A DNA stretch of 64,000 bases. It comes from Escherichia coli (lineage in GTDB: Bacteria > Pseudomonadota > Gammaproteobacteria > Enterobacterales > Enterobacteriaceae). The position numbers were made by a program. The stretch lies in NCBI RefSeq assembly GCF_003018255.1, contig NZ_CP027440.1; one strand, given 5' to 3'. Below, piece after piece: positions 13,801 through 16,800 of this stretch (position 1 is the first letter of the stretch; each line of letters begins with the position of its first letter).

Positions 13801-16800
13801 ATTCAGGGCTATTATTATTAGAAGCAAACTTAAATTATCCCGTCGGATCCAGTTTTAACACCATCACCAAAGATTTAATCGGTAACACCTGGAACATTAT
13901 CAGCGGTATTACCGTTGCCTTCGTTCTCTACATCCTCACTTATGCCTATATCTCTGCTAATGGTGCGATCATTAGTGAAACGATATCAATGAATTTGGGT
14001 TATCATGCTAATCCACGTATTGTCGGGATCTGCACTGCCATTTTCGTTGCCAGCGTATTGTGGATAAGTTCGTTAGCCGCCAGTCGTATTACCTCATTGT
14101 TCCTTGGGCTGAAGATTATCTCCTTTGTAATTGTTTTTGGTTCTTTCTTCTTCCAGGTCGATTACTCCATTCTGCGCGATGCCACCAGCACCACGGCGGG
14201 AACATCTTATTTCCCGTATATCTTTATGGCTTTGCCGGTGTGTCTGGCGTCATTTGGTTTCCACGGCAATATTCCCAGCCTGATTATTTGCTATGGCAAA
14301 CGCAAAGATAAGCTAATCAAAAGCGTGGTCTTCGGTTCGCTGCTGGCGCTGGTGATTTATCTCTTCTGGCTCTATTGCACGATGGGGAATATCCCGCGAG
14401 AAAGCTTTAAGGCGATAATCTCCTCAGGCGGCAACGTTGATTCGCTGGTGAAATCGTTCCTCGGCACCAAACAGCATGGCATTATCGAGTTTTGCCTGCT
14501 GGTGTTCTCCAACTTAGCTGTTGCCAGTTCGTTCTTTGGTGTCACGCTGGGATTGTTCGATTATCTGGCGGATCTGTTTAAGATTGATAACTCCCACGCC
14601 GGGCGTTTCAAAACCGTGCTGTTAACCTTCCTGCCACCTGCGTTGTTGTATCTGATCTTCCCGAACGGCTTCATTTACGGGATCGGCGGTGCCGGACTGT
14701 GTGCCACCATCTGGGCGGTCATTATCCCCGCGGTGCTGGCAATCAAAGCTCGCAAGAAGTTTCCCAATCAGATGTTCACGGTCTGGGGCGGCAATCTTAT
14801 TCCGGCGATTGTCATTCTCTTTGGTATAACCGTAATTTTATGCTGGTTCGGTAACGTCTTTAACGTGTTACCTAAATTTGGCTAAATCCTTCAAGAAGCC
14901 AGCCATTCGCTGGCTTCTTGCCTCTCAGGAAATCACTTATGTCCAAATGGCAACTCGCCTGATCCTCCTTCACCACGTATGCTTTGCGTCACCTTACTAT
15001 CAGGACGCTTTAGCCCATGTCCCGCTTTTTGATTTGTAGTTTTGCCCTGGTTTTACTTTATCCCGCAGGGATTGATATGTACCTCGTTGGTTTACCGCGC
15101 ATCGCCGCCGATCTCAATGCCAGCGAAGCGCAGTTGCATATTGCGTTCTCCGTTTATCTGGCGGGGATGGCGGCTGCGATGTTATTTGCCGGTAAAGTGG
15201 CCGATCGTTCAGGGAGAAAGCCTGTCGCCATACCCGGCGCGGCGCTATTTATTATCGCCTCGGTGTTCTGTTCACTGGCTGAAACCAGCGCGTTATTTCT
15301 TGCAGGGCGATTTCTACAGGGACTGGGCGCGGGCTGTTGTTACGTAGTGGCGTTCGCCATTTTGCGCGACACGCTGGATGATCGACGTCGGGCTAAAGTG
15401 CTGTCGTTACTCAACGGCATTACCTGCATCATTCCGGTGTTAGCGCCGGTGCTCGGACACCTGATTATGCTTAAATTCCCTTGGCAGAGTCTGTTCTGGA
15501 CGATGGCAACGATGGGCATCGCGGTACTGATGTTGTCTTTGTTTATTTTAAAAGAAACGCGCCCTGCGGCCCCCACAACTTCGGACAAACCACGAGAAAA
15601 TAGCGAGTCACTGCTTAATCGGTTTTTCCTCAGCCGTGTTGTTATCACCACCCTCAGCGTTTCGGTGATCCTCACCTTCGTCAACACGTCGCCAGTATTG
15701 CTGATGGAAATCATGGGTTTTGAGCGCGGAGAATACGCCACCATTATGGCGTTGACCGCTGGCGTCAGCATGACCGTTTCATTCTCCACGCCGTTTGCGC
15801 TGGGAATTTTTAAGCCACGTACGTTGATGATCACCTCACAGGTGTTATTCCTGGCGGCGGGGATCACCCTTGCCGTTTCACCTTCCCATGCGGTTTCGCT
15901 GTTTGGTATCACGCTGATTTGCGCCGGTTTCTCGGTAGGTTTTGGTGTGGCGATGAGTCAGGCGTTAGGGCCGTTTTCATTACGCGCGGGCGTAGCCAGC
16001 TCGACCTTAGGTATTGCGCAAGTTTGCGGTTCGTCACTGTGGATTTGGCTGGCGGCGGTGGTTGGTATCGGCGCATGGAATATGCTGATCGGGATTCTGA
16101 TTGCCTGTAGCATAGTGAGCCTGTTGCTGATTATGTTCGTCGCGCCTGGACGCCCGGTTGCCGCTCATGAAGAAATCCATCACCACGCTTGATCTCAATC
16201 TGCTGCTCTGTCTGCAACTGCTGATGCAGGAGCGCAGCGTGACCAAAGCGGCGAAGCGGATGAACGTGACCCCTTCGGCGGTGAGTAAGTCGCTGGCAAA
16301 GTTAAGAGCGTGGTTTGACGACCCGCTCTTTGTGAACTCACCGCTGGGGCTGTCGCCCACACCGCTAATGGTCAGCATGGAGCAAAATCTGGCGGAGTGG
16401 ATGCAAATGAGCAACCTGCTGCTGGATAAACCGCACCACCAGACACCGCGCGGCCTGAAGTTTGAGCTGGCAGCAGAATCACCGCTAATGATGATCATGC
16501 TTAATGCGCTGTCGAAACAGATCTACCAACGTTACCCGCAGGCGACCATCAAATTACGTAACTGGGATTACGATTCCTTAGATGCCATTACTCGTGGTGA
16601 AGTGGATATTGGTTTTTCCGGTCGCGAAAGTCATCCCCGTTCGCGGGAGCTGTTAAGCTCGCTACCGTTAGCCATTGATTATGAAGTGCTGTTTAGTGAT
16701 GTGCCCTGCGTCTGGTTACGCAAAGATCATCCGGCACTGCATGAAGCATGGAATCTGGACACCTTTTTACGTTATCCGCATATCAGCATTTGCTGGGAAC

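Follow-up and report, generated by a model that had tools for sequence, protein, structure and literature searches.

Co-directional bacterial genes that overlap by only a few nucleotides (ATGA at -4, TGATG at -1, or a spacing of -8) leave no room for a promoter or a terminator between them, and the downstream gene of such a pair can do without a Shine-Dalgarno sequence of its own (PMC12548453, PMC10666635). In native E. coli pairs, coupling by termination and reinitiation is reportedly efficient only when the spacing falls between about -8 and +10 nt (PMC10666635). Coupling across long overlaps is nevertheless precedented in the coat-lysis pairs of RNA phages, at -38 nt in phage fr and -50 nt in MS2, where ribosomes that terminate on the coat gene switch on translation of the lysis gene (reviewed in PMC12548453). 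In MS2, a defined RNA hairpin masks the lysis start.

Among LysR-type regulators, divergent transcription from a target gene is the most usual arrangement. The locus described here, mdtL-yidZ of E. coli, is unlike typical LysR loci in that the regulator gene, yidZ, lies downstream of an MFS pump gene, mdtL, is co-directional with it and overlaps it. Like the short-overlap pairs, mdtL and yidZ leave no room between them for a promoter or a terminator, and, as in the coat-lysis pairs, the downstream start precedes the upstream stop by tens of nucleotides. The locus differs from the short overlaps in the position of the yidZ start, 26 to 32 nt upstream of the mdtL stop and thus outside the -8 to +10 range, and in that no MdtL-YidZ complex is known; it differs from MS2 in having no predicted conserved structure. 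Both the overlap and the start are already known from E. coli annotations and from a table of gene spacings published for this species (supplementary file 3 of PMC10666635), in which the pair is given a spacing of -26 and is marked 'CMPLX not'. We consider that the mdtL-yidZ junction is best explained, as a whole, as a conserved two-gene unit, with a probability of about 0.85. The features on which this reading is based are the following, the window being the whole 64,000-nt stretch of E. coli DNA analysed (contig NZ_CP027440.1).

15017..16192 (stop included), + strand: mdtL coding sequence, MdtL-family MFS efflux pump of 391 aa (ORF list, Pfam, NCBIfam, RefSeq)
16134..16166, + strand: unconserved cytoplasmic tail of MdtL, directly before the yidZ start (entropy)
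16167..16192, + strand: mdtL/yidZ dual-coding overlap of 26 nt (sequence and ORF list)
16167..17126 (stop included), + strand: yidZ coding sequence, LysR-type regulator of 319 aa (ORF list, NCBIfam equivalog, RefSeq)
16190..16192, + strand: mdtL stop TGA, formed by the wobble T of Leu8 (CTT) and the GA of Asp9 (GAT) of YidZ
16194..16364, + strand: LysR-type HTH_1 DNA-binding domain of YidZ (PF00126)

The initial annotation had named the two genes as the mdtL efflux pump gene and the LysR regulator gene yidZ, and profile matches in NCBIfam and Pfam confirm both identities. MdtL aligns over residues 1-391 with NCBIfam NF007782 (716.5 bits, cutoff 417), to whose family it belongs, and has an MFS_1 architecture in Pfam (PF07690, E=5e-45). 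YidZ belongs to the NCBIfam equivalog NF007581 (687.1 bits, cutoff 314) and is of the LysR type, with an HTH_1 domain (PF00126, E=3.1e-14) followed by a LysR_substrate domain (PF03466, E=2.4e-16). This order of domains, with HTH_1 at the N-terminus, and a length of about 300 aa are those of typical LysR-type regulators; YidZ has in addition an N-terminal extension of 7 residues (MKKSITT) ahead of the usual first helix. HTH_1 covers residues 10-66 of the 319-aa protein and starts two bases past the mdtL stop.

In RefSeq, the layout is the same in K-12 MG1655 (mdtL b3710, 3891615-3892790; yidZ b3711, 3892765-3893724) and in the closest strain (locus L001; mdtL 1618-2793, yidZ 2768-3727), and K-12 shows the same 26-nt overlap, product sizes and neighbours, without any structural difference. 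Of 5426 complete E. coli genomes, 5421 have the 2.4 kb mdtL-yidZ locus at a coverage of at least 80%, the strain of the window being 97-99.8% identical over it. Its E. coli neighbours are tnaB upstream and yieE and yieF downstream.

The overlap of 26 nt in different frames, as first described, is exact in the sequence, the ORF list and RefSeq. It is a deterministic property of the sequence and not a statistical one, so that chance is not at issue. The yidZ frame is +1 relative to that of mdtL (one base ahead), and the last eight sense codons and the stop of mdtL lie one base out of register against the first eight yidZ codons plus two bases of codon 9. Read in the yidZ frame, the overlap encodes MKKSITTL followed by two bases of the Asp9 codon; read in the mdtL frame, the A and T of the yidZ ATG complete a His codon (CAT, 16166-16168), after which come the last residues of MdtL (not shown). 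In most other Enterobacteriaceae, Leu8 is encoded by CTC and the mdtL stop is a TAA located 6 nt later, made of Leu10 (CTT) and the AA of Asn11. The mdtL stop is thus always built from YidZ codons, namely the wobble T of a Leu codon and the first two bases of Asp9 or Asn11. Without the TGA at 16190-16192, the sequence of E. coli mdtL would be read through to a TAA at 16286-16288.

We compared 83 junctions and collected 80 genomic loci, drawn from one-genome-per-species contigs of the genera Escherichia, Salmonella, Citrobacter, Kluyvera, Klebsiella, Raoultella, Enterobacter, Ewingella, Vibrio, Photobacterium, Moritella and Shewanella, which belong to the orders Enterobacterales, Vibrionales and Alteromonadales. 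Entropy was computed on 26 genus-level representatives, and the protein alignment comprised 21 YidZ relatives, from E. coli to Shewanella. The overlap measures 26 nt in 20/83 junctions (Escherichia, two Enterobacter-like genera, Ewingella, Vibrio, Photobacterium, Moritella and Shewanella) and 32 nt in the other 63/83 (most other Enterobacteriaceae). It is kept in 78 of the 80 related loci, across the three orders; one apparent exception, L070, is a frameshifted assembly or a pseudogene in which the 32-nt overlap is still there. The overlap of 26 or 32 nt persists even in lineages that lack the flanking tnaB, yieE and yieF, and mdtL-yidZ therefore behaves as an old two-gene unit.

The extent of the overlap depends on the yidZ start, for which the initial annotation had chosen ATG 16167 among three in-frame candidates, TTG 16158, ATG 16167 and ATG 16224. 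All three exist, to which a fourth, GTG 16239, has to be added.

16158..16160, + strand: TTG at -9, rejected start (in 8/83 junctions, all Escherichia)
16167..16169, + strand: ATG, start of yidZ (ATG in 83/83 junctions)
16224..16226, + strand: ATG at codon 20, rejected start (start codon at this position in 48/83 junctions)
16239..16241, + strand: GTG at codon 25, rejected start (SD-like GGAG upstream)

The choice of ATG 16167 proves to be right, on three counts: (i) its presence in all the junctions, (ii) an entropy step, from 1.4-2.0 bits at -9..-1 to 0 bits at the ATG, with a yidZ-frame codon periodicity past it among the 26 representatives, and (iii) the start of the NCBIfam profile, position 1 of NF007581 falling on this codon. 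The N-terminus MKKS...LDLN that follows is conserved in the 21 aligned proteins. In 40/83 junctions, moreover, no ATG, GTG or TTG comes between an in-frame stop and ATG 16167, a TAG directly preceding it in one Shewanella locus (L075), and no start candidate upstream of it is common to more than 17/83 junctions.

Initiation at TTG 16158 would yield a protein of 322 aa and an overlap of 35 nt. This codon is the first start-type codon of the yidZ ORF, which opens with TTG 16158, continues with ATG 16167 and ends at 17126, and it is preceded, 7 nt upstream, by a weak GGA whose duplex with the anti-Shine-Dalgarno sequence (-3.0 kcal/mol) is like that of the ATG. The conservation of the alternative start codons, which had been proposed as a check, goes against it: besides being restricted to Escherichia, the TTG is polymorphic within this genus (missing in L003 and L005), and in several species a stop codon interrupts the frame between -12 and -3. 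Nor is there any conservation upstream of ATG 16167, and the three extra residues fall outside the YidZ profile, positions 1-318 of 319 of NF007581 aligning to residues 4-321 of the TTG-extended ORF (in which HTH_1 lies at 13-69). We regard this start as very improbable.

Initiation downstream of mdtL, at ATG 16224 or GTG 16239, would mean that there is no true overlap, and it had been named as the outcome that would contradict the initial annotation. ATG 16224 is in frame with yidZ, and GTG 16239 has a good SD-like GGAG ahead of it, with a duplex energy of -6.6 kcal/mol. This GGAG, however, corresponds to the conserved Gln21-Glu22 codons, and GTG is the codon of Val25 in a minority of loci only; ATG 16224 is without a Shine-Dalgarno sequence (+1.5 kcal/mol), and its codon 20 encodes L, T or S in many genera. 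Residues 1-19 of YidZ, which both starts would remove, show strong conservation at the protein level and a codon periodicity in the yidZ frame. Between +3 and +30 of yidZ, none of the 83 junctions contains an in-frame ATG, GTG or TTG, and any start outside mdtL, those at 16224 and 16239 included, would therefore imply the loss of the first helix of HTH_1, as the domain begins at residue 10 (nt 16194). A downstream start is likewise very improbable. As for experimental determinations of the YidZ start or N-terminus, the supplements of a ribosome profiling study with tetracycline-inhibited ribosomes (PMC4909307) and those of the TRAINSPOTTER N-terminomics study (PMC13245402) contain no yidZ or mdtL entry. 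The doubt on the start codon is settled by the comparative evidence, which designates ATG 16167 as the predicted start. The overlap, already annotated and ordinary in itself, is thus almost certainly real, with yidZ starting at this codon.

The two reading frames are not under the same constraint. Upstream of the overlap, entropy reaches 1.1-2.0 bits at nearly all positions from -33 to -1, and the tail of MdtL (the 11 codons before the overlap) undergoes 3-codon indels between genera. Within the overlap, the third positions of the yidZ codons, which are the first positions of the mdtL codons, vary freely (0.84-1.79 bits). From these alignments, the yidZ frame alone appears to be under purifying selection in the overlap, and the end of MdtL would be a passenger sequence, because only the yidZ frame shows constraint. 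A possible selection holding mdtL open through the yidZ start was assessed by a shuffling test on the stop-free MdtL tail, which gives p ~0.036 under conservative clustering, with GC-rich tails and few independent lineages; this weak signal is not relied on.

Constraint in the yidZ frame only, together with the barely significant stop-free-tail test, fits a neutral origin of the overlap, which would then be a frozen accident, yidZ being translated independently of mdtL. This could occur either by Shine-Dalgarno-independent de novo initiation on a bicistronic mRNA or from a weak internal promoter, and the overlap would persist since its removal would require the shared segment to be duplicated. 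The spacings of -26 and -32 nt, outside the range of efficient reinitiation (PMC10666635), point in the same direction. On the other hand, the overlap has been kept over three orders in spite of an MdtL tail that is permissive to substitutions and 3-codon indels, no lineage has gained a Shine-Dalgarno sequence for yidZ, and a consensus scan of the + strand within mdtL reveals no promoter-like site. We give this neutral reading somewhat less than an even chance.

The signals around the yidZ start bear on this question. No Shine-Dalgarno sequence is found at yidZ in any lineage, as judged from anti-Shine-Dalgarno duplex energies in the 80 unique junction sequences: the mean is -2.3 kcal/mol, as compared with -1.9 +/- 2.4 at random positions of the window. 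The value at ATG 16167 of the window is -3.4 kcal/mol, while the tnaB and yieF starts of the same window reach about -7. As expected of the downstream gene of a coupled pair, yidZ is thus devoid of an independent ribosome-binding site. RNA structure is equally inconspicuous, the alignment fold predicting 0 conserved pairs at the junction, the E. coli junction folding worse than shuffled sequence (z=+1.16) and Rfam giving no match there; no RNA structure that would mask the yidZ start emerges from these folds or from Rfam. The start context is A-rich (AUG AAG AAA), and the unstructured start region is what is expected of Shine-Dalgarno-independent starts (PMC7043885), in line with an independent translation of yidZ. 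As to terminators, the scan yields three weak hairpins of 5 pairs, lying 230-550 nt before the junction, and about as many would be expected by chance.

A natural separation of the two genes is provided by locus L012 of MGYG-HGUT-00110, another apparent exception, in which a 1.4 kb AT-rich insertion, carrying a Stealth-family gene on the opposite strand, parts mdtL from yidZ. A duplication of some 130 nt of junction sequence has left both ORFs intact there, and the two copies are now only 80% identical. The yidZ gene of L012 is intact after the split and still has no Shine-Dalgarno sequence, an argument against an obligatory coupling to full-length mdtL. That the separation came about by just such a duplication as a neutral overlap would require, the absence of a Shine-Dalgarno sequence being maintained, is also in favour of the neutral reading.

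A quite different reading would make the overlap a site of programmed +1 frameshifting near the mdtL stop, leading to a membrane-anchored MdtL-YidZ fusion. The mdtL stop does always fall, in the +1 relation, right where the HTH domain of YidZ begins, and fusion ORFs exist in databases (P0076), but P0076 is a deletion product. Neither a conserved slippery site nor a prfB-like one is present, the P-site codon before the stop changing from GCT in E. coli to TCT in most Enterobacteriaceae and differing again in other groups, and there is no SD-like stimulator upstream and no conserved structure. Programmed frameshifting, which has hardly any chance of being right, is rejected, a conserved slippery site being absent.

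Coming back to the conserved two-gene unit, its layout is accounted for as follows. The mdtL frame runs without a stop until it meets the first conserved codons of the DNA-binding domain of YidZ, where a Leu codon with T as its third base, followed by GAT (Asp9) or AAT (Asn11), provides mdtL with a TGA or TAA stop. The absence of a Shine-Dalgarno sequence, of conserved structure and of a promoter- or terminator-like site nearby makes co-transcription plausible, together with a Shine-Dalgarno-independent, possibly coupled, translation of yidZ. That mdtL and yidZ are co-transcribed is likely. From their common transcript, yidZ would, on the simplest reading, be translated at a low level, at a start devoid of a Shine-Dalgarno sequence in a weakly structured, A-rich context. 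Two routes can be envisaged: (i) ribosomes fresh from mdtL may re-initiate a short distance upstream, or keep the site unfolded, in a way comparable to RNA-phage coat-lysis, or (ii) initiation at yidZ may occur de novo, independently of a Shine-Dalgarno sequence. Either route would tie the output of the regulator to the pump transcript.

A true translational coupling of yidZ to mdtL, as in the first route, can be proposed tentatively, as a reading that has more against it than for it. A dependence on mdtL translation is suggested by the deep conservation of the overlap and by the fact that a ribosome-binding site has never evolved. The spacing does not go along with it, being -26 nt here and -32 nt in most Enterobacteriaceae, against a range of about -8 to +10 nt outside which native E. 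coli pairs rapidly cease to be coupled (PMC10666635). The statement of the initial annotation that the overlap couples the regulator to the transporter holds in a physical sense only: the two genes share DNA and, very probably, a transcript.

The protein itself is made from its native context: YidZ tagged with 8-myc at the C-terminus, on the chromosome, gave 118 ChIP-exo sites (PMC8464067). The mdtL gene is apparently absent from these sites, since in Dataset S4 of the same work its first occurrence is in the YfeC list, which comes after the YidZ list (PMC8464067). The link between regulator and transporter is therefore one of gene arrangement only.

To the annotated overlap and start, the present analysis adds a comparative settlement of the start, the age of the overlap, a constraint that concerns the yidZ frame only, and the absence of a ribosome-binding site for yidZ in any lineage. 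The overlap is older than the divergence of the three orders compared, and its conservation from E. coli to Vibrio and Shewanella is its mildly interesting feature. As a modest test case offered by nature, the pair could help to show whether overlaps well beyond -8 nt support translational coupling in a chromosome, a use beyond which we see no wider consequence. It is unlikely that the overlap is a selected, ancient coupling device, in which a yidZ start without a Shine-Dalgarno sequence would receive most of its ribosomes from mdtL, after termination 23-29 nt downstream and a return to the AUG. If this were true, the pair would be a chromosomal counterpart of RNA-phage coat-lysis, working at a spacing deemed ineffective by recent work on native E. 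coli pairs, and the overlap would hold the regulator at a fixed low ratio to the pump throughout the three orders.

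Two further elements lie at or near the junction at which yidZ overlaps the 3' end of mdtL:
Window 16229-16241, inside yidZ: Shine-Dalgarno-like GGAG, followed 6 nt on by an in-frame GTG (Val25), with an anti-SD duplex energy of -6.6 kcal/mol.
Window 16034-16498, minus strand: 154-codon antisense ORF running across the mdtL/yidZ junction, an entry of a mechanical ORF list only.

The GGAG is there because of conserved Gln-Glu codons of yidZ; together with the GTG, it could give rise to a minor YidZ isoform devoid of the DNA-binding HTH in those strains that carry the GTG. The start of yieE, 150 nt downstream of yidZ, is ambiguous too: the first ATG of its ORF is located at window 17271, and RefSeq places the start at the second ATG, at 17283 (3884 in the related locus L001), where the SD-like match is better (-5.6 versus -3.0 kcal/mol at the first).

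Upstream of mdtL, a strong ChIP-exo peak has been reported at NC_000913.2 3889534-3889558 (PMC8464067, Dataset S4), which corresponds to about 100 nt before window 15017. The peak has signal/noise values of 65 and 102; it is listed under YfeC as well as under one or more further, unrelated candidate regulators, and is apparently not among the YidZ entries (PMC8464067). It may mark a position of high occupancy at the mdtL promoter that is either shared between regulators or an artefact.

Disrupted or fused forms of the two genes are found in other strains. In E. coli MS1737 (NZ_CP097711.1; locus L002, 3768-5581), yidZ is truncated to 300 nt; next come a hypothetical gene and an IS91-family transposase, with phoU after these, so that yieE, yieF and the genes beyond are absent at that site. 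In the 512-aa E. coli protein P0076, encoded on 27 contigs, an in-frame deletion has joined the first 302 or so residues of MdtL to the part of YidZ that begins near residue 107, leaving an MFS fragment attached to a LysR effector-binding domain without the HTH; this probably reflects the loss of both mdtL and yidZ in one particular lineage. In Citrobacter koseri NCTC10786 (L070, 1851-3022), a frameshift divides mdtL into two parts, 1851-2636 and 2660-3022, with yidZ likewise truncated (278 aa), which reflects either an assembly error or pseudogenisation; the 32-nt overlap geometry is retained.

In Enterobacteriaceae bacterium MGYG-HGUT-00110 (L012, 1400-3040), mdtL and yidZ are separated by a 1.4-kb AT-rich insertion, which contains:
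L012 1559-2683, minus strand: Stealth_CR1/CR2 gene, in the orientation opposite to mdtL/yidZ.

This locus carries a duplication of about 130 nt of the junction, the copies being 80% identical, and as a result mdtL keeps its 'HEEA...QS*' tail while yidZ keeps its ATG. The latter is preceded by a decayed 3' fragment of mdtL, in which the mdtL frame is still open over 55 codons. In this genome, the overlap is naturally resolved, by means of duplication.
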